Shown in pieces: positions 12,945-61,078 of a DNA stretch of 64,000 bases; positions within the stretch are counted from its first letter, which is position 1, and each line of letters opens with the position of its first letter. The stretch spans positions 20,037,657 through 20,101,656 of the forward strand of contig CM119266.1 in NCBI GenBank assembly GCA_051294375.1, written 5' to 3'. The DNA comes from Paraspadella gotoi. Taxonomy: Eukaryota > Animalia > Chaetognatha. The notes beneath the pieces were generated by a model, which did not search any database, was not told the DNA's origin, and was given only the letters and a program-made list of their open reading frames with translations. The position numbers were made by a program, and so were the translations under genes.

Positions 12945-13069
12945 TATGGTGGACTAAAATCCATTAACCGTTCTAGCCCGGTGGTCGCCTAGCAGTTAGG
13001 ATATTCAGGGACTGCTTATATTGAACGGTTCTGTCACTAACACATTTTACTTTTGTATTTGTCTCTTCA
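12945..13069 (+). mobile_element. Internally deleted solo LTR of the twister-TRIM family (family A)
   Basis: Starts TATGGTGGACTAAAATCC and ends GTCTCTTCA like the LTR at 49655-49888; most of the tRNA-like head and the ribozyme core are deleted. Confidence 0.8.
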
Positions 13070-13159: not shown

Positions 13160-13335
13160 GTTAACTGCTAGGTGGACCTTTGGGTTGGAAGTCGAATGCC
13201 GTGCCTCCTGTATGCTGATGAATGGTTGGTGAATTTTACAACCAATATAAAATCCTCCATTCATTTAATAAACTATCTTGCCCCTGACTTTGGACATGCT
13301 ATGGTGGTTTCCGACCTCAATCACTCTTACATGAT
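13160..13335 (-). mobile_element. Chimeric degenerate copy: family B twister unit joined to a family A LTR fragment
   Basis: Minus strand reads GTAAGAGTGATTGAGGTC..CATGTCCAAAGTCAGGGGCAAGATAG..ATATTGGTTGT (family B), then directly AAAATTCACCAACCATTCATCAGC..CCAACCCAAAGGTCC..TAGCAGTTAA (family A). Confidence 0.7.
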
Positions 13336-19500: not shown

Positions 19501-22500
19501 GATCAACTTGCATAATTTGGTCAATCAATCAATCAGTCAAAGAGAGATAGAGACAGGGAAACTTTTAAAATTCAAATGAATGTGTCTTTTGGTTTTCTAA
19601 TTTAAACTTTTTGAATCCTACGATTCCATCAAAAAATTATATCCAGCTTAACCACATACTTTCCTACCCACACACAAAATTTCATTTCAATTTATCTATC
19701 CAATTTTTAATCAATATAATAATTATGAGTAAAAATACTTCAATATATGAAATATGACTTATTTTTTTCAATTTAAACTCATTTCCACCCGCACGATTCC
19801 ATCAAAACTTTATATCCAGCTCATAATTAGATGTTCTGCCGTGATTTAAGTGAGTGCCCGATAAGATTTAGGGGGACCGACGGACTGACAAAGTGGATTA
19901 TAGAGTCGGAGTCTGCTTATAAGCAGATCCAACTAAAATTTTTTTTGTAAATAAAACAAATGAGTGTATAAATATGAAACATTTGAATCCAGAAGATCTT
20001 GCTGATTAGATGCTATATCTAAATTTTTAGCTTCCTTTGGTTACACACTTTTACAATTTGCGATAGTAAAGAAGCGTAACGACAATGACTGTCACAAAGA
20101 AGCAGAGGCGAACCAAAATCACGCCAAGACGGGCTTAAGCCCGTCTGGCGAGATAAAAATATGATTTTCGTGTTGAAAAATTTTTTTTCAAACATGTTAT
20201 GAACTTACGTATTTTAACTTATCTTTAACTTATTTTAACAAACCGTCAATGAATTTTCAATCATATGGTACAATAAATGATAACGGGTATTTCACTCGTT
20301 AAATTTTATTTAGTGTCAGTCGATACGTAACACGAGGTTTCTTACCGAAATCTTCGATTCCACAAATGTCTGTATCTCCAAAGAGAGATTCCTCATTAAA
20401 TCGCATGGAACGAATGGAAGATGTTTCTGATTTGCTTCGTTGGTAGTTGGCCTTCGTAAAGTGCGAGTAATCTGGTTTGCTGGGGATTAAGGGGAGCAAA
20501 AATTGTTATAAAACAAATGTAGTTAAAATTTCCAAAAAATAGGATCAGTTCAGGACCTAATAAACAAAATTTCATAAGCCACGAAAAATGAAAAATCAGT
20601 TTTGACAAGAACTTATTTATTATAAAAGGAGAAAGAAAAAGAAAGGAATCAGGATAAAGAAAGGAGGAATCAGGATAAAGAAAGGAGGAATCAGGATAAA
20701 GAAAGGAGGAATCAGGATAAAGAAAGGAGGAATCAGGATAAAGAAAGGAGGAATCAGGATAAAGAAAGGAGGAATCAGGATAAAGAAAGGAGGAATCAGG
20801 ATAAAGAAAGGAGGAATCAGGATAAAGAAAGAAATGATGTTTTCTATTAATGCGTTGACAGTAATTCAACAATCATCATTCATTCAAGCTTTATGAAACG
20901 AAATACCAATTTTTATCTTAATCCTTTATTAGCTTTCTAAATTAATGTTATTTAAAATTATTTTGGTTAAAAATAAATGGTTATTGAGAGCCATTGGTGA
21001 CAATAAGCTTGAGGTATATTTGTAGTCGGGCATTGCCTAAGTTAACCCCGCCTATAAGCCTGACACATTCAGTCGCGACCCGGTGGCTCGTTGAGTAAAG
21101 CCATCAGATCATGACCACTAGGTACCGGGTTCAATCCCAACCCGGTACCTATCCTGCGGGAAGCGTGAGGACGGCCGTAAACCGCCTTGGAGGCGTGGAA
21201 AACCCCCAAGCCAGGTTCCATGGCTGCTGTTATTTACAATAATCACTTATAATAATCATTATAATAATCAGTTGTATAAAAGAACTATTAAAAAGAAATA
21301 CGAGATAAGTGAAGATTTGGGTAGATGAACCTGGGTGGCTCGTCGTTCCTTTCGCTTTTATGGTCTTCCTTGTGTTGAGCAAGAGCTACGTACAACTTTT
21401 GACGTTGAAATTCGGTCCCGTTCATAGCAGTGATAGCGCGGTTGGCCGACTCAAGGCAATCAAAACTTACGAAACCGTAACCTAAAAACGTAACTATGAC
21501 ACGTTAGCAAAGGCCTTTTTGATACTAATTTTATTTATTTTTTTTATCCTATTTTTGAGAAAGGATTATACTTTCTTTTACCAACTTTTAATGGCGAATC
21601 AAAATCTGATAAAAGTTTAAATATTTGGAAAGATTAATACTTTGATTTTTATTTTAAAACTTTCACTTCACCCAAATTTATCCGGGCGCTGTTATTTTTT
21701 AAATTTGTAATGGAATCGAAATTCATAACATAAATCACAAAAACTTGTATTTTAATGAAAAATAATTTTAAAACTGTCATTTTAAACACTAGGAGGTAAA
21801 TGTAATAAAATCTAACATTTAACAAATTAAATTTTATTATGCTTTATTGCAGGTTCGAATTTCTTGTAAAAATTTGATATAGAAAACTTATTCTTTTTAA
21901 AAATTCGATCATTAAGTTGGTTAAATATAGGCTCCACGTACGATCGACGTCTTTTAGACAACGAAATCTGAACTTCATTAATTACCATCTTTCTTGATCT
22001 CATTAGTTAGTATGAAGCTTACTATTTAAAAAAACGGTAGTCTCAAGTTATCTCCTTCTTATCACTTAGAACTTCCCAGGTAAATTTCTATGAGTTAAAA
22101 ACACGGTAAGACATGGTTTCTTCAATGATTGTTTATCTAATCTCATTAACTTCGTAATTTTAGATATAAGTATGTTCGAATTTTTATGGTATAGATCATT
22201 TTTAAAGATCGAATTCCTCATAAGAATCTTCACGTCTTTTACTTACATAAAAGTTTTTAGGTAAGACGCCACATTATCTGATACAATTTTTTTTTCTTCA
22301 TACGCTTTCCCTGATTCTTTTTCTTCACTTCTTTTCTTCTCTTTCTTTATATTTTCCTCTTCCTCTTTCCTCCCTTACTTCTCAATCTGTCACTTACCAT
22401 TTTTTGGCCCCTACCTTTTTCTGCCATTCATGCACTTTCCTCACCTTTTTTTTCTCCTTCTCTCTTTCCCTTTCTTTTCCCCTCTTTTTCTTTCCAATTT

Positions 22501-25500
22501 TCCCCTCATTTCCTACCTTTTATTTGTCTCACTATTTTTTCCCCATTTGCCTATTTTGTTTTGCCTTTGGCCCCCTATTTCATTTTCTCCCCTTCTCCTT
22601 TTCTTGTTTTCTCTTTCCTCTTCCCTCTCACTACGTTTACATTGAGCCATATCAAAGAAAATCTTTAATATGCATTATAAGAAAGGATATTAACGGTAAC
22701 GGAGGTTTTTATTTCAATTTTGGTTGCCTAGCAAATTTAGTAAAATTTTGCGGAAAATCTTTCCGCAAAATCTGTCGATTTTCAGAAAAAACAAGTCCTG
22801 ACGCTTTCCATTGGGTTAAAAGGATGCGGTTTTTTTGTTTTATCAATGTCAGTAAGTACCCCATCTTTTAAAACTAATAAATGAGTTGAAAATATTTTCT
22901 TTATCATAAATAAATGCAAGTCACAAAAAGTCACAAATTAAAATTTGTCTTTAAAAATTATTTGTGGCTAAACGAAAAGAGTTTTTTTGATAATTTTGTA
23001 GGTGTTAAAAGCTTATTCTGTGGACTGTATTTTCTGTTAGTTTAAGCCAATTTAAACTATTTTTGTTTAATAAATTATAATAAAAACTAAAACTGCGACT
23101 TTTTGACTTGTCAACTTTAAAATTAATTCATAAGTGAACTATGAATGATATAAGGAAAATATTTTACTCAAGGGTGAAGAAGATAAGGAAGAAAGGAATT
23201 CCAAAATAAAAAAATTTTCTCAACTTTCCTTGGCATTCAAATTTGAAGACGAAAGTGAAAATGGACAAAAATGGACATGATTTTTTTTTCTAAAAGTTGC
23301 AAAAATGTTACTCTCTATATGATTAGAAATAGCTGGAGATGGTTTTAACCAATCCTATTTTGGCCTAATTTATATTATGGTGCAAATTATATTAATTTCC
23401 TTTCTTTTCGTTGTTTTGCAAATTAGAGAAAAACAAAGTTTATTTGTTTATGTACAACGATTTATTTTTACATAGGACATGTTTCGGCTTTAGTATAAGC
23501 CTTCATCAGCGTTTGATTAATCAGACAAATTTTTCTCTTAACATTGAGTCAGAGAGAGAGAGAGAGAGAGAGATGAGAGAGAGAGACAGAGAGAGAGAGT
23601 AAAGAGAGAGAGAGATAAAGCTTCCAACAAAGGTTGAGATAAGGACAGGAGGAGGGAGAGGAGTCTGTATCACCTGCAGCAAAGCAGGCCAGAACAGGCA
23701 TTTGCCCGCCTTGCCGTCAGGCGAGAGGAGGGACTTCGGCAGGCTTATCAGGCCAGAGGGATATCAGAGTGGCATTGGGCATTTTTCCAGGCGGCTCGTT
23801 ACCAGATCCTGGACAATCTCGATCCATGACGATACCCTCTCAGCCCATGACAAGTCAATGACCCGATCATATCATCAACGTCCTGCTTTTGCCAGGCCGG
23901 GGGGGGCCAGCTCATTTTGAGCTCTTTCTTTATCTTTATTTTCTCTAATTCTACAACTTAGCTATCCCTAACCACACATTCTTCTTTTCTCTTTCTCTTT
24001 ATTTCAATCTTAATTAACAAACTAGTTAAAATACTCTCAGTTAAATCTACTAGTTTAAGCATTAAGTATATTTATTTGTTGTTATTGAATTATTTATTCC
24101 TTTATCTTTGTTGTACATTACAAAAAATGTAAATATTTTCTCTCTCTCTGTCTCTTCAAATTTTCACTATTCACATTTCAACCACTTTCCTCTTCTTCTC
24201 TCTCCTTACCTTCACCTGTCCTCAATCTGACCACTGTCCTTATCTCAACCTTTGTTGGAAGCTTTATCTCTCTCTCTCTTTACTCTCTCTCTCTGTCTCT
24301 CTCTCTCTCTCTCTCTCAATCTCTCTCTCTCTCTCTCTCTGACTCAATGTTAAGAGAAAAATTTGTCTGATTAATCAAACGCTGATGAAGGCTTATACTA
24401 AAGCCGAAACATGTCCTATGTAAAAATAAATCGTTGTACATAAACAAATAAACTTTGTTTTTTCTATGGTGCAAATTAAATTAATTTTGTTAATAGTAAC
24501 TGAACAATACTGGAAAAAGTAGTTTTTTCTCTGAATGCGAGGATCGTATGCAGAGGCTATAGAAAGAAAAAATATTTTACTTGCGGCGACGACAACAACA
24601 ACGACAACAACCTTGACAATGAAACTGACATTTGACCAAGGTCAAGTTCCTGACCTTAAAACAACCTTACCTTTACTATTGTTTAGCGTTTTCCCTTATT
24701 TCTTACTTACCATTGTTTTGTCTTTTACCTTACCTCGTTTTTGAATGATTTCGATCATTACATGTCTTATCCTTAAACTGAAAACAACTCGATATTTTTC
24801 TCTACAAAAATCTACAAAGTCAGATCCCAAAGTGGTAAGCCCGACTTGCAACAAATTTTACGCAACCTTCTCACACTAATTTAAAAAAAAAGTACCTTCT
24901 ACTCTCGAAACGAATTCATTATGGAGGATTCATTCCCAGACAAAGCGTTGGACGCGGACACTCTTCTGCCCCGACCTCGCCCGGCGTTGGCGCCGCCCAG
25001 GCTCCCCCTGCCGCCGGCGCCGCCCCCGGTCGGGTCCAATGGGACCAATCGCTAGAACGCCACATGAGTCACCTTGTGGAGAGAGCAGAGAACCGTCTCA
25101 CTGGTCGCCTTGACGTTCTCTTGCAGGCGTCAATTGGCCCTATTGTCGACAGCATCCGGGAGATTAGAGAAGAGATCTCTCGCGCTAAACGCCGCCTTTC
25201 TACCGCCTCTAGCTCGGGCGCTGCGGAAGCTCCGCAGAGGCGCCGCAAACCCCTGAAGGCGTCTCCCTTCTCCGGACGGATTATTTGCCGCCTTCTGTCG
25301 CCCGTGGGACGCCAAGCTCTTCGCGGCCCAATCCTCGACGCCGCCACGCTTCAAACCCGACGCCTCGCCGAAGCGGAAGCACTTTGATGCCGCCGCCACC
25401 GCCGCCGGTGCCAAGCGCTGGTGCCACAGCTCCTATGGAGACAGAAACTGTTCATTTCGACCTGCCTCCTCCCACGGGCGCCGTTCCTTCAAGGCCTCGC

Positions 25501-30823: not shown

Positions 30824-33800
30824 TTAACTATCAAAAAATGTTTTAAGTAGATGCAACTTCTCACTTTTCATATTGTATTCTGCGGTCAAATTTTTCAGTT
30901 CGTCTCCTAGATTTTTATTCAACTTTTTGAGGGCTTTGATTTCTTTCAAAGTTCCTTGGAGCTCCTTGCGAAGATGTATATTGTTTTCGTCAATAGAAAC
31001 CGATTGGAACTCTTCTAAATTTTCGACGAAGCCCGCAGTTCTGAGCTTCTGAGCCACGTTCATTTCATCAATAACTACGTCGACACTGTGGCGAATGGGC
31101 ACCTCACTATGATCAACTTCATGGCAACGCAAAACAACTGAAGCGTTCACAAAGTCCCTCATCAGCATGGTCGCTTCAGGAGACCAAGCACCGTCAGTTT
31201 CCAAAGCACGTATACCGCGCAAGGCGCATCGAATGCATAGGGCGGGTAATTTGGTCATTTCCTTCGGTAAGTCAATGAGATCTTGAAAATTAACAACGAC
31301 CATATTGCCGTCATCGACAAGCCAAACTTGCACTTTTTTCTCTTCTGCGAAAGTCGCTGCCAAAAGAGCTCGGTGAAGTTTACCCTGGTACAAAGCTAAC
31401 ATTGCAGAACCGCGGGGAACAGTGGCGACCTCCATTTTTCCAAGACCTCCCATCAATTCGCCCGACTTAGATAAAATATTTTCTTCGAGCTGTCGGTACT
31501 TGGATAATTCATCCATTAGGGGTACAACAACACTAAAGTTTTTTGGGTTACTGACGCATTTGAGAATGAAATCGCCTTCAGAACCGATTTGAAGAGATCT
31601 CATTGGTATAGTGTTTGAAAGAGTAACAGGAGGGGCCGACGACGATGCAGGCTTCGACCTCAGCACGGCCCGAGGAACCATACGAGCGGAGTAAAGTGGA
31701 TTCGCATTTGCAACTGGTGGCTTGTATCAAAATTTTTCAAGTAATGTACGGACACAATAATAATAATAATAGTTCTAATGAAAATTCCTGGGTGTTGCGC
31801 CGAATTAATTTTCTTTTTATGTTATCGCAACTCGGAGTAGATGGAGTTGTTGTATCACCTATCTGCTAAATCTAATTATCGACTAAAACTATACACTGTA
31901 TAGTATACAGCGCAACATGAATTATGTAGCATTAACATATTAACACTGCTCCGCATTACATACCTTAGTTATTTGCATTGACTTTTTCTCAGGCGATTAC
32001 AATTTAGGGTTCTCACGTTGCTACACATGGATAAAATATGAACTAAAGTTTCTCAAGGTACATAACCTACTGGGACATCTACTGTCGGGCGCAATGATAG
32101 TTGTAAAAATCGAAATCCTATAAAACATCCTTTTAAAGAAACTTTTTGAAAAAAAAATCTTAAAAGTATAGTGATCTGGCCAGACGTTACTATCCAAGAA
32201 AAAAATGATAATGATAATGATTGATGCAATGATAACCAATAATAATCATTCATTGATGCGATGATAGTCACTCATTGACGCGATCAGAGATAGAGAAAAA
32301 AAAAGAGAGAGAAAGAAAAAGAAATGCAGCCGTTTTTAGACGAATCAGAAAAGGCAGCGAAGGAAAAAAAAAGAGAGAGAGTACGACATATAATTAAAAT
32401 GTAATTATAATTCATAGTATTTTTTATATAAAAATTATTTTGTAAATAAAACAAACAAATGCGTGTAGCAATATGAAACATGTGATTCTAAAAGATCTTG
32501 ATGATGAGAAGCTATATCTCAATTTTTAACTTCCTATGGTAACACACTTTTACAATTTCTAATTGTAAAAATGCTTGACGACGGCAACAACGGCACAAAG
32601 AAGTGATGATTAAGCCCATCTGGCGAGATAAAAAAATATTTTTTAATGAGTCAGTTTATTTGTTAACGTATAGCGTTAACCATATAAATAGTTAAAATTT
32701 AAAATTAAACAAATTTGAATTCGATTTTTTTTTAAAATAAAATTTTTCGTTATATACTTAAAAAAATTTGATACGCAAGAGATTGAGAGTGGAGATGGTT
32801 GGGACGGTTGATCGCTGACTGCATACAATGAGTTTTTTCTGTTGTCCGGAGAAACGGTAGCTTCCTACAAAAGACAAATTTATGTAAAATCTAATTAAAA
32901 CGCACCTTAACAAATTCGAAAATGGGAATTTATAATTTCAGAGGGTCATGTAAGGACACCTGCCAATATGCATGGAATTTTCCTTCTTTTTCTTCCTTTC
33001 TTCTCAACCTTTCCATCTCAGAGATAGCGACCTCGAAATGCAATGCGTTCGCGTTATCGATCTTCTTCCCGTTTAAATTCTCCATGGCGACGTTGGCATT
33101 TCGAAAACTTTCATATGTAACCCAAAGACGTGATAAGTCTTTACGAACATGATCGTTGGCTCGGGATATCTCCAAAACAGTACCATATTCGGAAAACATT
33201 TCTTCAAGGGAAGCTGTTGTGCAGCGACGGGGAACGCCTGTAAGGATTTCCATTTTTACGGTTACGTCGTTAATGAAATGATAAACTATGGCAACGGGGA
33301 GACAAATGTGATTCCCGGGGTGTGGCATCTCCCGACAGCTGGCGCCCCTGCAGTGACCACCCCATGTCGCTGGCGTGTTTATGCCAAAACCATCACACTT
33401 AAGCAGGGTTACAGTGAGGGGATTGAACCAGGAACTCACGGTTGGTGAACGAGTACTAAGCTGTCAAAAGCAATGTGACGAGCTGAATTTTCACCAAGCC
33501 ATACGTGAGGCGAATTTGGGATTCGCCACAAAATCACACAAAACTTAAATGAAAAAGGCCACTTAAATATTTTTAATTCCAGCGCGGCAAGGTTGTGGGA
33601 TCAGAGCGTCAGAAATCAGGCGAAGATTTTTTAACTGATTTGTGTGCCGTCGAGGAAAAACACTACTCGCTAGATAAGGATTAGGTGTTTAGGGGTAAGG
33701 ATAAGGATACTAACTACTAGATAAAATTAGTCAAAAGTTAGTAAACCTTTACCACCGTTAAGTGTCAGTAGGGTTGCTTGGCCCGGTTGGGGTTATAGGT

Positions 33801-34535: not shown

Positions 34536-34945
34536 TTTCGTTTGGTCAAAATATTTATAGGATATTTGCTCTGGTAACAAAGCGGAATGATGAAAATAGC
34601 AAGTCTCAACAAAGTAAATAAAATTTAATTTCAAATTTTCTCCAAGAATTTTCAATTAAAAATAAAATATATATATACTGTACCAACGAAGTAACGTAAA
34701 ATACTTTTTATGCGTACATAAAGTGACCGGATGAACGTCTTAAATGTCAATTTAGCAAATGAATAGTTGGTACGCAGTAATAACAAAATTATGGCTCTTT
34801 GGCTTCAAGCCAGTATTCTAAAATCAAAACGCTTAAAAAATAAAATTAAAAAATACAAATCGCTATGTACGAATGACTAAAATCGATATAAACTTTTCTT
34901 GTTTAAAAGGGGGCTTAAAATCGGTTCACAGTGGTCATAGGTTCG

Positions 34946-35018
34946 GTGTTCTAGCCCGGTGGCCGCCTAGCAGTTAAGAGGGACATGACAGGAACGATTC
35001 TATCAGTATCTATCACTA
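34946..35018 (+). mobile_element. Family A LTR fragment
   Basis: GTTCTAGCCCGGTGGCCGCCTAGCAGTTAAGAGGGAC..GAACGATTCTATCA matches LTR positions 49741-49777 and its tail. Confidence 0.7.
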
Positions 35019-35169
35019 AATGAATAATTCATAACAATTATTCAATCTCTTCAACGATTCATTCGCTTTTTTTCCCACCCGCCATTTCTTGATTTAAAAA
35101 ATCTGAAAAAATTTAATTCTAAAAAATAAGAGGGATATACAGTATATATAGTAGTTAAACCACCATAGC

Positions 35170-43998: not shown

Positions 43999-44463
43999 TT
44001 ATTCAGAAGGTCGTTTTTCGGCGTATTTCCTTGTAAACTCATCGGCCGACTTGAGAAATTTTTTTTTGTCCCTGGAGAATTCTTCTGCCAAGTCGGATCG
44101 CAGGGGATGATCTGGTTCTGGATCATTGACGAGAGCCACTAGGGACTGAATAACCTGATCAGTCTTGGTTGCTGGCTTCCAATTCTCGGTAGAAATTATT
44201 GGCAGGCAAACTTGGCCCTTTTCATCTATGTTAGGATGGTAGATCTTAGTCTTAAAGGTAATCTTGGGTGGCTTGAAAGGATATTCTGCCGGGAAGTTGA
44301 TTTCGATTCGAAACGCTCCTTTATTGTAAGGAGGATTTTCCGGCACGATGAGGCCTTGCCAACAGAGAATATTCGTTTCGTCTACGCTAATGTCGCGAAA
44401 AGCCTTAAGGTTTGAGCTTCGAATGTCTTGCAATTCTTTAGCCAAGCGCCTGGTGGCTGCCAT
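43999..44463 (-). CDS. UBE2L3: Ubiquitin-conjugating enzyme E2 L3 (UbcH7), intronless CDS
   Basis: 154 aa; [63 protein letters not shown]. Confidence 0.97.
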
Positions 44464-45248
44464 TTTAAAATTTTTCTTATCAAGGCTGTAGAATGATCTG
44501 AAACCGAAGCAATACTTTCATTAACCAGAGATTGTATCATAAAAATCAATAGTAAATTTTTTTTTTAAATTTAGGTACATACAATTTTTTAAAAATAATT
44601 TTAATAAAAGCTAAAACAGTGATCGCATAATTTAAATTTCTTTGTAGTAAAATGGAAGACTATTGTCTATTGAGTATTAATACAGATCATTAACGAATAT
44701 AAATAAAATCGCCAAAAAGGGGGAAAGACATATGTCACCATTCCAAAAAAATATTTTTAATCATTAAATGAACCAATTTTAATTTTTGTTTAACTGACTA
44801 CATGATGAAAATATCCAGCGCAGTGAATTTTTAATTTTACATTAAGTTTGAAAAGTTTTAACATATCTTTGTAACGAAAAAAAAAATTTATATAATGGTG
44901 ACTCAAAAATGTAAAATCATATTTGGCAATTTTTATCCAAAACAAAAAAATGATAAAGCAAAGTAATTAAAATTTTTGTTTCATAAAGAAATCCTTGAAG
45001 AGTCCTTACTTCTGACCCACAGCATATTGATCGGCTATTCATACATTAATAAATAATTATGGATAAAACCTTAAATCATATACATATAATATTGAATTTA
45101 AGGAAATGCCATGTCATGACATACAAACAGCGTTCGTATTCATTTTCAGGCCTCTGTTTTAAAGAATCCTATAACAAACAACTTTTGTTGTCCTCCTATT
45201 TTAATATATAAAATAATTATTATTATTATTAATTAATATTCACATTGC

Positions 45249-47140: not shown

Positions 47141-48433
47141 TCATAAATTCCCAACAGGCCTAGACGATCTTTTTTCTTGTTGGCTACGTCGAAGTTGCTG
47201 ACTCAAGCGGTGACGCTTTCGGGAGTTCCGCTGCTTCCTCGTTTGTCGACTCGAAAATGGTCTTTTATTGCCACTGGTTATTTTAGAGTCAGTTTTTCCA
47301 CTTATAATTTTTTGAGTTTCCGAAGTCATGAACTCAACAGCTTTGCTACATGGGTTGTCACGAAACTTTTTTAAGGCTCGTCTATAATCACGAGATTTTT
47401 TAGGTTTTTTCATTACAAAGGAAGTAACCCAACGTTCATCGATAAGATTTGCCATTATCAAAAATACATCCTTCTTCAAATGCGTCGAAAAATGAGGACA
47501 ATCACAAGTATTTCCGTTTTCAAGAATAATGCGTAAATCCTTAACCGATCTCTTCCTGACCTTTTCGGCTTTGTACACTTTGCTTTTGATCAATACAAGA
47601 TCCATAGAGCCGTCACCACGCCGACGTTTTTCTACAATTTTAGACCGAACGACGACATCGGCTCGACAAAAATTATCCATAATGCCTTCAAACGTCTCAG
47701 ATTGCTCGCAAGCGTCGCAAGAATTACCCTCAGGTTGCATATGCGCTTGAGGTTTTATACACAGGTCATTGTCGAGAGGAAATTTGTCACAATTGAGCAT
47801 ATCAGGCCATGCAAAGCCATAAGACATCATTCGTTTTTCACAGCCCGCCTTCACGGCCATACAGGTTGATCGGCATGGATAAATAAGCCTATCTAAACAA
47901 ACGGGCGAAAATAGGGAACAGAGAAAGAGCTGAGAGTCAGGATGACACTTTATACCGACGAGTCCAACCCAAGAAGCGGCTTGGTTGACAACTTCTGTCA
48001 AAGTGTCGTGATCGAGTAAATTGGGTAGCCTCATTTTGTCATATCGTATATTGTTGCACAAAGTCAGATTTTTTGGGATGGGTACGCATTGAGGTGCGTG
48101 AGAGCGTCCTCCCAGCATGAACCAATCATTATGACTCATGCCAGAGCCCCAGGGATTTTCATGACTCATATGGGCGCCCCCAGACGCACCGTATCCAAGC
48201 GAATCAACGCTTTCGTCCATTGACGGATAGACGAAAGCGACCGCACGGGAAATAGGGTTGCAGTTTATCACGAAAATCACTAAGATGAGCATAAATGAGC
48301 GAATTTTGATTTGGATGAGTTGCAGGTATCTTTGATTCGTTGCGCCAAGTTGCGACTGTGATTTTTTTGATTGCTCCATAGTCAATTTTATTTTCAAGTA
48401 AGATATTGTGCAAAATCCCTTCCAAAGTAGCAT
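47141..48433 (-). CDS. Secreted frizzled-related protein (sFRP1/2/5 type), intronless CDS
   Basis: Hydrophobic signal segment, Frizzled CRD (CVPIPKNLTLC..MRLPNLLDH..CHPDSQLFLCSLFSPVCLDRLIYPCRSTC..FAWPDMLNCDKFPLDNDLC), NTR domain and basic tail. The true start may be a downstream ATG. Confidence 0.93.
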   Translation of the reverse strand: MLLWKGFCTISYLKIKLTMEQSKKSQSQLGATNQRYLQLIQIKIRSFMLILVIFVINCNPISRAVAFVYPSMDESVDSLGYGASGGAHMSHENPWGSGMSHNDWFMLGGRSHAPQCVPIPKNLTLCNNIRYDKMRLPNLLDHDTLTEVVNQAASWVGLVGIKCHPDSQLFLCSLFSPVCLDRLIYPCRSTCMAVKAGCEKRMMSYGFAWPDMLNCDKFPLDNDLCIKPQAHMQPEGNSCDACEQSETFEGIMDNFCRADVVVRSKIVEKRRRGDGSMDLVLIKSKVYKAEKVRKRSVKDLRIILENGNTCDCPHFSTHLKKDVFLIMANLIDERWVTSFVMKKPKKSRDYRRALKKFRDNPCSKAVEFMTSETQKIISGKTDSKITSGNKRPFSSRQTRKQRNSRKRHRLSQQLRRSQQEKRSSRPVGNL

Positions 48434-49687
48434 TCACGATATTCTCTCCGTTAAATATCCATCATTTTTTATTGGGGGAGACGTTGAAAATCACAGACAT
48501 CTTGAAAGTAGAGGTTTTGATGCGATTTGCGTCATCTAAAATGAAAAAAAAATATAATAACAATAATATTTACGTATTTACTTTAAAAGCAATTGAAATA
48601 CATCATCTCTAGAAAATTACAATGTAAACAAAATTCACTCAAAAGATTCCAATATATTATTCATTAAGATTCTCCAATTTGCTAATAGTAGTACTACGAT
48701 ATTTTTTTTCTTCTGATATTAAAACATCACAAATGATTTTAGAATTCGGAACGTTGCAAGACAACTACGAAGGCTATTTTTTCTTAAAAATAATGTCATA
48801 TTTAATTATTATATTTAATTCTTAGAATACATAAATGAGATCTGCGGGATGAGAGACTCAAGGAGTTATTTTAGTGAGAGGGCGCTAATTCGGTTGGACG
48901 AAATGTTTTTCAAATAAAGCCCAACTTATACAAAATTAATTAATGATCTAATAAAGAGATTCCTACACAGGACTTACTAAAAAGCAGCAATCTGTAACAA
49001 TTATATTAATTTAAGTAATAACTACGCACTAGGAGAGAAATATTGGTGATCTTGATTTCTCAGCTGATTTCTTGCATCATCGTAGAGAGCAGCGGCTCGA
49101 GGTCAAGTCTAATCGGAATTCCCTTTTGTTCGTCCGTTGCTAAGGATACGTCCCTTAACTTTTTGTTACGCACAACAGCATCAATGTATGACAAAGGACA
49201 AACGCACTCAATAAAATGATAAATAATCATTAAATTATGTATTAAATTAATGGATAATTTTCTTGTCATTATTAATGTAAATATTATAATTTCCACTGCC
49301 CCAATTTGGAATTTTGGCTTACTTTTTATGAAGTTCGTAGCTAACTGGTTATTGTTTCTGTGTTTGGTCAGCTAAACTAAAAATTAAATCTCAATTCTAA
49401 TCGCTTATATCTATTCAATCCTCAACACATTTTAAAACAATTCCTAAAAAAATATTTGTCAATTAAATACGTGGCAAGGCGCAACATTTTTAAATCAAAT
49501 AATACGTTCTCATTTTGATAATAGTACTTTTATTTTAAATAAAGGAAATATGGCTCTATAGTCAAGTCTATTGATACAACGATCATAGTTAATGAATGTA
49601 AAATTTTATACTAAGTCGTGACGCACAAGTCCTGATTACATTGCTTAAAAGTACTATGGTGGACTAAAATCCACCAACCGTTCATCA

Positions 49688-49760
49688 GCGGCCATTGGTG
49701 CCGGAGGCAAGTCATTCGCCTCCCAACCCAAAGGTCCGGGGTTCTAGCCCGGTGGTCGTC
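49688..49760 (+). promoter_or_regulatory. tRNA(Gly)-like Pol III internal promoter in the 5' LTR (repeated at 50109-50181)
   Basis: Acceptor-like stem GCGGCCA/TGGTCGT, A-box-like TGGTGCCGGAGG, TTCGCCTCCCA resembling the tRNA-Gly(CCC) anticodon region, B-box-like GGTTCTAGCCC inside a CCGGG/CCCGG stem. Confidence 0.65.
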
Positions 49761-49762
49761 TG

Positions 49763-49836
49763 GCAGTTAAGAGGGACGGGGCGCTTAACCCGCCTGTAAC
49801 ATGGTGTTACAGCCTGATCCGAAGCTCAGGGACTGC
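49763..49836 (+). ncRNA. Twister-like ribozyme, P5-permuted, P1 nearly absent (5' LTR)
   Basis: P5 GCAGT/ACTGC; GA then T1 CGGG pairing with loop TCCG; TAA at 49786-49788; P2 CC/GG; T2 GC with GC; P3 CTGTAAC/GTTACAG; P4 CCTGA/TCAGG around loop TCCGAAGC. Confidence 0.75.
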
Positions 49837-50183
49837 TTATATTGAACGGTTCTATCACTAACACATAACAATATTTACTGTCTCTTCATTGGTGAGCCCG
49901 ACTTCCGAACACAACAGCAAACAACAACACTTTCAGGCGACATGCCTCAACCTGGCGATGCACTTTCCGCCCACAACACATCAGGCGACATGCCTCAACT
50001 TGGTGACGAACTTTCCACCAACAACACAATTCACTGAAGAGATGCAACAGACTTCTCCTTACGGGAGGGGGGATGTATGGTGGACTAAAATCCACCAACC
50101 GTTCATCAGCGGCCATTGGTGCCGGAGGCAAGTCATTCGCCTCCCAACCCAAAGGTCCGGGGTTCTAGCCCGGTGGTCGTCTG

Positions 50184-50257
50184 GCAGTTAAGAGGGACGG
50201 GGCGCTTAACCCGCCTGTAACATGGTGTTACAGCCTGATCCGAAGCTCAGGGACTGC
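50184..50257 (+). ncRNA. Twister-like ribozyme (3' LTR copy)
   Basis: Identical to 49763-49836, offset by 421 nt. Confidence 0.75.
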
Positions 50258-50837
50258 TTATATTGAACGGTTCTATCACTAACACATAACAATATTTACT
50301 GTCTCTTCAGTACTTAACATTCTTTTTTCTTAAGAATGTATAATTTTATACCTCATTCCTTCTCCGCGGCTCCCCTCCCTATTCTAGTCTTTCTTCCTAC
50401 TCTGTTAGGCCATGCCCCTCCCTATCTTTAAGTTTCCATTGCTTTAATTTTTCTCATCCCATTTCCCCCCTATCACAAAACTCTCCATTCATCGTCGCCC
50501 CCCTTTTTCCGAGGTTAAAACTGGACTTCAGCCCTGTAGCATTCCTTCATTGCCGGTTCCCACACCCTTTTTAAGGTTAAAACAGTAAGGACTATAAAAT
50601 TTAAAGATAAATATTTTACAGTAATTACTTTAGCTTAAACTATAAAGCAAAGGTATATATAATGATCCTTGACCAATTCAAACAGTTATAAAAATAAATA
50701 AAAATCATGTGATCTGAAAAATTTGTGAACTGATTGAAATATGTGGAAGAAACAAAAAGTTTTCTATGATGAAAGTTCATCTCTATAATTTCATAGTTTT
50801 TTCTTTAAATTCTTTTTATTCTTTAAAAATTTTCTAG

Positions 50838-60514
<9,677 letters not shown>

Positions 60515-60919: not shown

Positions 60920-61078
60920 GTGACAGAACCTGATCAGGCCGTAACACCGTGTTACAAGCGGGTTAAGCGCCCCGTCACTCTTAACTGCTAAACGGTCACC
61001 GGGCTAAAACCCCGGACCTTTGGGTTGGGAGGCAAATGACTTGCCTCCTGCACCAATGGTGGATTTTAGTCCACCATA
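60920..61078 (-). mobile_element. Degenerate solo LTR of family A
   Basis: Minus strand: TATGGTGGACTAAAATCCACCATTGGTGC..CTTAACCCGCTTGTAACACGGTGTTACGGCCTGATCAGG; ribozyme loop L4 is deleted. Confidence 0.85.

Follow-up and report, generated by a model that had tools for sequence, protein, structure and literature searches.

Anatomy and copies of the element

The window, by which we mean the whole 64-kb stretch of DNA that was analysed, contains the ORFs UBE2L3 and sFRP, which match animal proteins, the closest named sFRPs being about 50% identical, which points to an invertebrate bilaterian as host. It also contains an element of 655 bp bounded by two LTRs (positions are those of the window, and features lie on the forward strand unless stated otherwise). 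The 5' LTR (49655-49888; 234 bp, TA...CA ends), delimited by repeat comparison and by the loose ends of reads, and the 3' LTR (50076-50309) are 100% identical across 234 bp with an offset of 421 bp. Directly outside them lie the two copies of the TSD GTAC (49651-49654 and 50310-50313), which was read at the single full-length copy, the one in the window. The internal region (49889-50075; 187 nt) is made of C/A-rich linkers, small hairpins and a 48-nt duplication and is non-coding, the longest ATG-started ORF of the element in six frames being 77 aa long. A PBS of the tRNA-Trp type, a 13-mer at 49890-49902, starts 1 nt past the 5' LTR and shares 12 of 13 letters with the tRNA-Trp PBS of Gypsy-32_NVi and Helenus-2_SyJa (PMC10886601 Fig S2), a score that refers to these published sites and from which the host's own tRNA-Trp 3' end may differ. 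At the other end of the internal region, an 11-nt polypurine tract (PPT; 50063-50073) is separated from the 3' LTR by a 2-nt spacer. A run of four T is absent inside the element, and the first T6 occurs at 50323, 14 nt beyond the 3' LTR.

Within the 5' LTR, the MFE fold contains a terminal hairpin (49657-49676), and a 9-bp helix, whose 5' arm at 49676-49684 pairs with 49843-49851, brackets a degenerate tRNA-like head (49688-49759) and a fold of the type-P5 twister kind (49762-49837). A first-pass annotation of this DNA had described the identical LTRs, the GTAC TSD, the PBS at 1 nt with one mismatch to a tRNA-Trp type, the PPT, the lack of coding capacity, and the hairpin and bracket around the last two modules; all were found in place, and the termini are now also fixed by reads.

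The copies of the element were followed in public DNA runs. On a 1.4-kb stretch, 19,937 contig pieces were placed from run X1, 3,064 from X5 and 1,167 from X9. The summed depth in X1 was about 2-3 million over the LTR, 0.7-1.1 million over the internal part and 216 over the right flank; as summed read depth is no copy number, it is read only as an order of magnitude, and on that reading the copies of the family number in the thousands or higher. Loose ends whose flanks were unrelated piled up at 49655, 49888, 50076 and 50309 (69, 62, 47 and 56 contigs in X1, respectively), the agreement among their flanks being 0.41-0.56, and in X5 and X9 the loose ends fell at, or 1-2 bases from, the same four LTR ends. 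Fixed termini, unrelated flanks and a multi-copy internal part indicate a dispersed LTR element and not a local duplication. Other runs (organisms B and C and one biofilm) were considered as independent hosts and rejected, as each contained only 1-2 low-depth contigs. No divergent relative was found in a metagenome scan (117 loci from 52 of 64 parts) or a viral scan (5 loci), which returned chance matches only, and none of these 117 metagenome and 5 viral loci showed blastn similarity to the element.

Next to the one full element, the window holds five further LTR copies, decayed or deleted. They include a decayed solo LTR (55570-55804; 88%) in which the twister still matches and which is without a TSD, and, identified by similarity to the LTR of the element, a truncated copy on the reverse strand (60932-61078) and an internally deleted copy that kept both termini (12945-13069). 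This excess of lone copies would fit a locus that is no LTR element and in which two SINE-like or pseudo-LTR units, each with a tRNA head and a ribozyme, stand around unrelated DNA and are mobilised by a LINE or a Penelope-like element. Neither of the two partial copies checked has a perfect TSD (none, or 3 of 4 letters), and SINEs combining a tRNA promoter with a hammerhead are known in Schistosoma (PMC6765202, in part). We nevertheless regard this explanation as highly improbable: the PBS and the PPT occupy canonical positions, the TSD is of 4 bp, the ends are exact at many loci and carry no poly-A or other tail, and the internal region, too, is present in high copy. The data support a recently active TRIM with the hallmarks of animal Helenus, in line with the recent insertion that the identity of the LTRs had suggested in the first-pass annotation.

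The twister fold in the LTR

A twister-like fold in each LTR had been suggested in the first-pass annotation, and the pairings bear it out. The fold of the 5' LTR is supported by a twister pair check, a descriptor null and an independent covariance model. It consists of P5 (7 bp; 49762-68/49831-37), P2 (2 bp; 49773-74/49789-90, plus a bulged third pair 49771/49791), P3 (6 bp; 49795-800/49806-11) and P4 (5 bp; 49813-17/49826-30). The pair check places G49775, followed by A49776, as the catalytic general base. Pseudoknot T1 is formed by three pairs (49777-79/49819-21) in a CGG/CCG variant, and pseudoknot T2 by two pairs (49792-93/49824-25) plus a C-G pair (49794/49812), so that 6 of 6 pseudoknot pairs are Watson-Crick. 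The UAA (U49786, A49787, A49788) would be cut at U49786|A49787, and the second twister fold, in the 3' LTR, has its scissile position at U50207|A50208; these predicted sites, placed as originally proposed, enclose a unit of 421 nt that holds both the PBS and the PPT. A second register, in which G49771 would act as the general base, was examined by eye and discarded, T1 being mismatched and P2 left without a partner.

Several results bear on whether such a fold could arise by chance. A descriptor with relaxed requirements (GA, T1 pairs, NAA, two P2 pairs, GC, four P4 pairs and L4), which was devised once the sequence had been seen, matched 18 dinucleotide-shuffled versions of the LTR out of 373,816 and had three matches in the window. 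Among 122 sequence-pattern matches from viral and metagenome contigs, none had T1, P3 and P4 together. A covariance model was built from 16 natural P5 twisters, with the element sequence left out; of its five matches in the window, the best three were the two LTRs and the solo LTR (22 bits, E of about 0.006; next match 9 bits), with the UAA of the element put in the wrong register. Combined, the descriptor null, the pattern matches and the covariance ranking indicate that the fold is not due to chance, and we conclude that it is almost certainly derived from a twister.

The Rfam check suggested by the first-pass annotation turned out negative: at the gathering threshold and even at E<10, the element matched none of the twister, tRNA and hammerhead models and fell short of the gathering score of clan CL00120, and 7 of 20 control loci were matched as twister in the same kind of search. 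The twister form present here is thus one that Rfam misses. Compared with Twister-P5 (RF02684), the element has the same order of elements, both pseudoknots, the catalytic G and A and the UAA, and it differs in having a P1 of a single pair with a palindromic loop, a P3, a short P2 and an A-U pair in place of an invariant G-C pair, and in a score that lies under Rfam detection. The CGG/CCG form of T1 does occur naturally and is frequent among twister folds of phages, the phage locus L116 scoring 46.3 bits on the same Rfam model. A full P2 and P4 were found in 30 of 121 viral pattern matches, about half of which belong to one closely related set. Published screens show that T1 pairs can be swapped and that defects in P1 and P2 are tolerated (PMC5113685; PMC11662667; in part).

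Whether the fold is active is a separate matter. The pair that closes L4 at the top of P4 is A49817-U49826, versus G-C in all 30 natural folds with a swapped T1, and the twister G-C pair at this position has been called essentially invariant (PMC5408937, in part). P2, which in twisters has 3-4 pairs, has its two pairs and the bulged third one here, and in a single copy P1, a conserved but dispensable stem of twisters, is one G·U pair. Furthermore, a rival local hairpin (49774-80/49789-94) ties up strands of P2, T1 and T2 and is more stable than the twister secondary structure by 10 kcal/mol, compared with corresponding gaps of 1.6-5.9 kcal/mol in 14 of 14 natural controls; pseudoknots were left unscored in all folding energies, for the element and the controls alike. 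These features would suit a twister carried along as a passenger or left as a relic, which came in together with a SINE or a Penelope-like fragment and is locked off by the hairpin, in what would otherwise be an ordinary Helenus-like TRIM, and the negative Rfam search points the same way.

Variation among the family copies speaks on both sides. Three positions of the twister core vary at a level of at least 2%. Two are located in the loop of P3 (49801 and 49802), and the third, G49821A, breaks T1 and accounts for 3-12% of the read depth, as a relic would allow. The majority sequence of the family, in contrast, keeps every catalytic and pseudoknot nucleotide, and a further variant, G49762A, keeps its P5 pair (G·U to A-U). 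The core is also less variable than the remaining LTR (1 of 64 versus 16 of 170 positions; Fisher p 0.046), a weak difference that is based on 40 of the 82 variant rows and counts 49762 outside the core. With a candidate ribozyme of a second class at the corresponding position of wasp Helenus LTRs (see below) also standing against a relic, we hold that explanation to be unlikely without being negligible, and we consider it likely that the twister cleaves in some context.

Helenus, candidate wasp hammerheads and other ribozyme-bearing retroelements

Helenus (TRIMp3), as described by Kojima in 2024, groups non-coding elements of 311-1263 bp with two LTRs, a PBS and a PPT; in animals the TSD is 4 bp long, the LTR contains a tRNA-derived segment with a box A (TRGCY, YGG) and a box B (GGTTC), and mobilisation is attributed to a Gypsy element sharing the primer (PMC10886601, in part). 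The element described here has in common with Helenus its small size, the lack of coding capacity, the PBS, the PPT, the 4-bp TSD and, less clearly, a tRNA-like LTR segment, which agrees with the likeness named in the first-pass annotation. It differs in its degenerate A box and in the position of the tRNA-like segment, which most Helenus families covered in the available part of that source carry near the 3' end of the LTR, followed by a T run. No sequence relative of the element was detected by motif searches and inspection of the part of the PMC10886601 supplement at hand.

The tRNA-like head (49688-49759) is a putative Pol III promoter, and this part of the first-pass annotation was borne out in part. 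A B box (49740-49750) is present, of which about one match is expected per 64 kb, together with a T-arm-like hairpin. The head folds better than shuffled sequences (z -2.7), and its T-arm region is alike to that of Helenus-1_MyGa at about 20 of 24 positions when compared by eye. A likeness to tRNA-Gly may exist. The A box, in contrast, is weak, the TRGCY motif of Kojima being absent from the head, and no tRNA tool recognised the head: ARAGORN reported 0 genes, the Rfam search listed no tRNA, and a covariance model of 19 T5 tRNAs gave no match to it. A blastn search of the head against phages returned 17 chance matches, none of them a tRNA, and 0 of 26 loci matched by a pattern derived from the head were tRNAs.

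The nearest parallel was found in Helenus elements of Synergus wasps. In Helenus-2_SyJa and Helenus-2_SyUm, the two tRNA-Trp-primed families in the part of the supplement available, a candidate type III hammerhead that looks intact can be discerned by eye directly after the tRNA-like part, with CUGAUGA and GAAA as its core, GUC as its site, the helices I-III and a loop-loop pairing of 12 bp. CTGATGA occurs eight times and CTGAAGA twice in the supplement, and only the two Synergus sites look like hammerheads. The Synergus elements share with ours the tRNA-Trp PBS, its 1-nt offset and the order of tRNA-like part, ribozyme and tail, and they differ in the class of the ribozyme, a type III hammerhead there and a twister here. 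PMC10886601, in its available part, describes no ribozyme in Helenus, the word occurring once, in a reference; on this reading by eye, the Synergus hammerheads appear to be previously unreported. Of all evidence from outside the element, this recurrence of the layout with another ribozyme class speaks most strongly for the module being of importance. No twister was seen by motif search in the supplement, where line breaks may hide matches. A 12-nt match between the LTR of Ajax and the P1/P2 junction was set aside, the Ajax sequence forming a plain hairpin there and the match being estimated at about chance expectation.

Ribozymes in LTRs have been described in plants. Plant LTR retrozymes carry a type III hammerhead in each LTR of about 350 bp and a tRNA-Met PBS (PMC4918200, in part), and according to the available part of a 2026 preprint, plants are still the primary home of LTR retrozymes (10.64898/2026.07.22.740005). 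As far as the available sources go, they share with the element a ribozyme in each LTR, a non-coding middle, a PBS, a PPT, a 4-bp TSD and Gypsy-like ends, a correspondence that the first-pass annotation had noted and that agrees with PMC4918200 and PMC7761336 (both in part). The differences lie in the hammerhead and tRNA-Met versus the predicted twister and Trp-type PBS, in the circles, demonstrated in plants while the element is known from its sequence, and in the tRNA-like head, which is present here and is undescribed for plants in the accessible part of PMC4918200. With no hammerhead and a Trp-type PBS, the element is not a member of the LTR retrozymes as they are defined, though it is predicted to work alike.

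Twisters have been tied to another retroelement, Perere-3 (RTE) of Schistosoma mansoni, in which twister T-variants process the 5' end (PMC8501958, in part). A weak or variable P1 is common to both systems, and according to the same partial source Perere-3 differs from the element in being non-LTR, in having a single P1-type ribozyme at its 5' end and in forming no circle. A full-text literature search, with most subscription papers, Repbase and Dfam lying beyond its scope, returned no twister LTR element and no ribozyme in Helenus, in keeping with the expectation of the first-pass annotation. The layout of an LTR retrozyme is already known from plants, with a hammerhead, and within the reach of that search its putative twister version in an animal LTR element appears to be new.

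Possible two-copy folding and the proposed life cycle

The P1 linker GGCGCU (49780-49785) offers one G·U pair and a palindromic 4-nt loop, GCGC, and its counterpart in the other LTR lies at 50201-50206. As the linker pairs fully with itself, forming a 6-bp helix with a duplex energy of -8.3 kcal/mol, two LTR copies could pair as a double twister. In the predicted structure of a two-LTR transcript, the 5' half of one twister finds its partner in the 3' half of the second, and the resulting nested arrangement is built around a shared 6-bp P1. This double twister is modelled at -194.3 kcal/mol, compared with -211.3 kcal/mol for two rival hairpins and -191.1 kcal/mol for two single twisters; it thus gains 3.2 kcal/mol over two single twisters and remains 17 kcal/mol above two hairpins. 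A self-complementary 6-mer is expected by chance in 2-6% of cases, which keeps the two-copy fold conjectural.

A precedent comes from hammerheads of axolotl, in which one helix is a single pair with a palindromic tetraloop and which cut far better as dimers (PMC7229834, in part). The type I hammerheads of axolotl and newt, which belong to non-LTR retrozymes, share this design with the element, as well as the second copy per transcript. In the sources available they differ from it in forming tandem repeats without LTR, PBS or PPT, and in that dimer cleavage is shown there and predicted here. Two-copy cleavage is accordingly put forward tentatively, as somewhat less likely than not, from the model and by analogy with the newt and axolotl type of hammerhead. 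The literature search, with most subscription papers outside its reach, returned no two-copy twister in print.

Our preferred reading is that the element is a non-coding mini-LTR retrotransposon with a permuted twister in each LTR, which likely acts as an LTR retrozyme; we give this a probability of about one half. We infer each RNA-processing step of this reading from an anatomy that is itself directly observed. A Pol III transcript would likely start near 49688, from the tRNA-like head, and because no T4 is present in the element it could span both LTRs. A lone LTR would reside mostly in the inactive hairpin, and cleavage would be favoured once two copies pair, the palindromic linkers forming the shared 6-bp P1 of the fully nested double twister. 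Cutting by both twisters would then release the 421-nt unit. Such a unit is without a terminal repeat and would have to be ligated for reverse transcription to proceed round a circle; an RtcB-type ligase might do this, as the example of animal hammerhead retrozymes suggests. A reverse transcriptase of the Gypsy type, borrowed and primed by tRNA-Trp, could copy round the circle and rebuild two LTRs, and a Gypsy integrase would make the 4-bp TSD. For the circle route as modelled, the odds appear to us to be even.

An active twister could serve in a simpler manner, by trimming one end of a linear transcript, which would leave a terminal repeat of about 100 nt for ordinary strand transfer and yield no circle. 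In this case it might define the 5' end in the manner of Perere-3 or R2, or substitute for a missing Pol III 3' terminator. The trimming of the 5' end of Perere-3 by twisters (PMC8501958, in part) offers a precedent, the element is without a T4 terminator while most of the Helenus LTRs examined have a run of T shortly downstream of the tRNA part, and partial repression by the rival hairpin would yield singly cut RNAs. The identity of both LTR copies argues against trimming at one end, since whatever leads to cleavage at one site should do so at the second as well; pairing of the two copies in the nested fold would expose both sites simultaneously, and plant LTR retrozymes of the same layout yield circles (PMC7761336, in part). 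We consider one-end trimming improbable. The verdict that we reach is that the element is a Helenus-like TRIM and probably a twister LTR retrozyme. The retrozyme reading of the first-pass annotation holds as to the TRIM and the fold and gains from the parallel with the candidate wasp hammerheads, but it had overlooked the rival hairpin, the A-U pair, the palindromic P1 loop and the weak A box.

Going further, animals may possess an LTR retrozyme class of their own, made up of miniature elements that are driven by Pol III, primed by tRNA-Trp and carry an interchangeable ribozyme behind the head, a twister in the present case and a type III hammerhead in Synergus Helenus-2. The element would represent it as a double twister with a palindromic P1 shared by the two LTR copies, so that cutting to a unit fit for circularisation would be confined to full-length transcripts and the finished circle would escape renewed cleavage. 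We regard this generalisation as speculative and, on present evidence, rather doubtful. For eukaryotic twisters, one role has been shown, the 5' processing of a non-LTR element (PMC8501958, in part). At 655 bp, the element provides a cheap test system for what genomic twisters do, and its modelled fold predicts a two-copy twister. If the proposed class is real, ribozyme-cut and probably circular replication would have arisen repeatedly in parasites of Gypsy elements, and the class of ribozyme would be swappable.

Internal region and decayed LTR copies

The internal region of the full-length element contains a 48-nt duplication (88%) within positions 49933-50028, where small hairpins follow one another in series, separated by C/A-rich linkers. 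This duplication or row of hairpins could provide packaging signals. Five decayed or internally deleted copies of the LTR were found in the window (12945-13069, 13174-13238, 34936-35050, 55570-55804 and 60932-61078), several of which retained both ends and had lost most of the twister.

Genes and other repeats in the window

Long, uninterrupted ORFs for UBE2L3 (43999-44517, minus strand) and an sFRP1/5-like protein (47141-48433, minus strand) lie in surroundings that are gene-dense. Two tRNA-like heads, at 21075-21150 (plus strand, B box at 21128) and about 33400-33450 (minus strand, B box at 33419), probably belong to SINE2-type repeats of other families. The segments 23415-23648 and 24234-24475 form an inverted repeat pair, 94% alike across roughly 240 bp and with some 600 bp between the arms, which resembles a TIR element, either a MITE or another type. 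At 51188-51496 lies an AT-rich tandem array whose units recur every 23 nt.

Ribozyme folds with the same T1 variant or a similar LTR context

The CGG/CCG variant of the T1 pseudoknot was found in natural twister folds, of both the P1 and the P5 permutation, on contigs from phages and bacteria (comparison loci L116:298-349, L416, L454 and 30 loci among L294-L414). By eye, an apparently intact type III hammerhead follows the tRNA-like part in the LTRs of two Synergus wasp TRIM families, Helenus-2_SyJa-LTR and Helenus-2_SyUm-LTR (DataS1, PMC10886601), and a 12-bp loop-loop pairing is discerned within this candidate; PMC10886601 makes no mention of such a hammerhead. Helenus-2_SyJa and Helenus-2_SyUm would be animal hammerhead LTR retrozymes.
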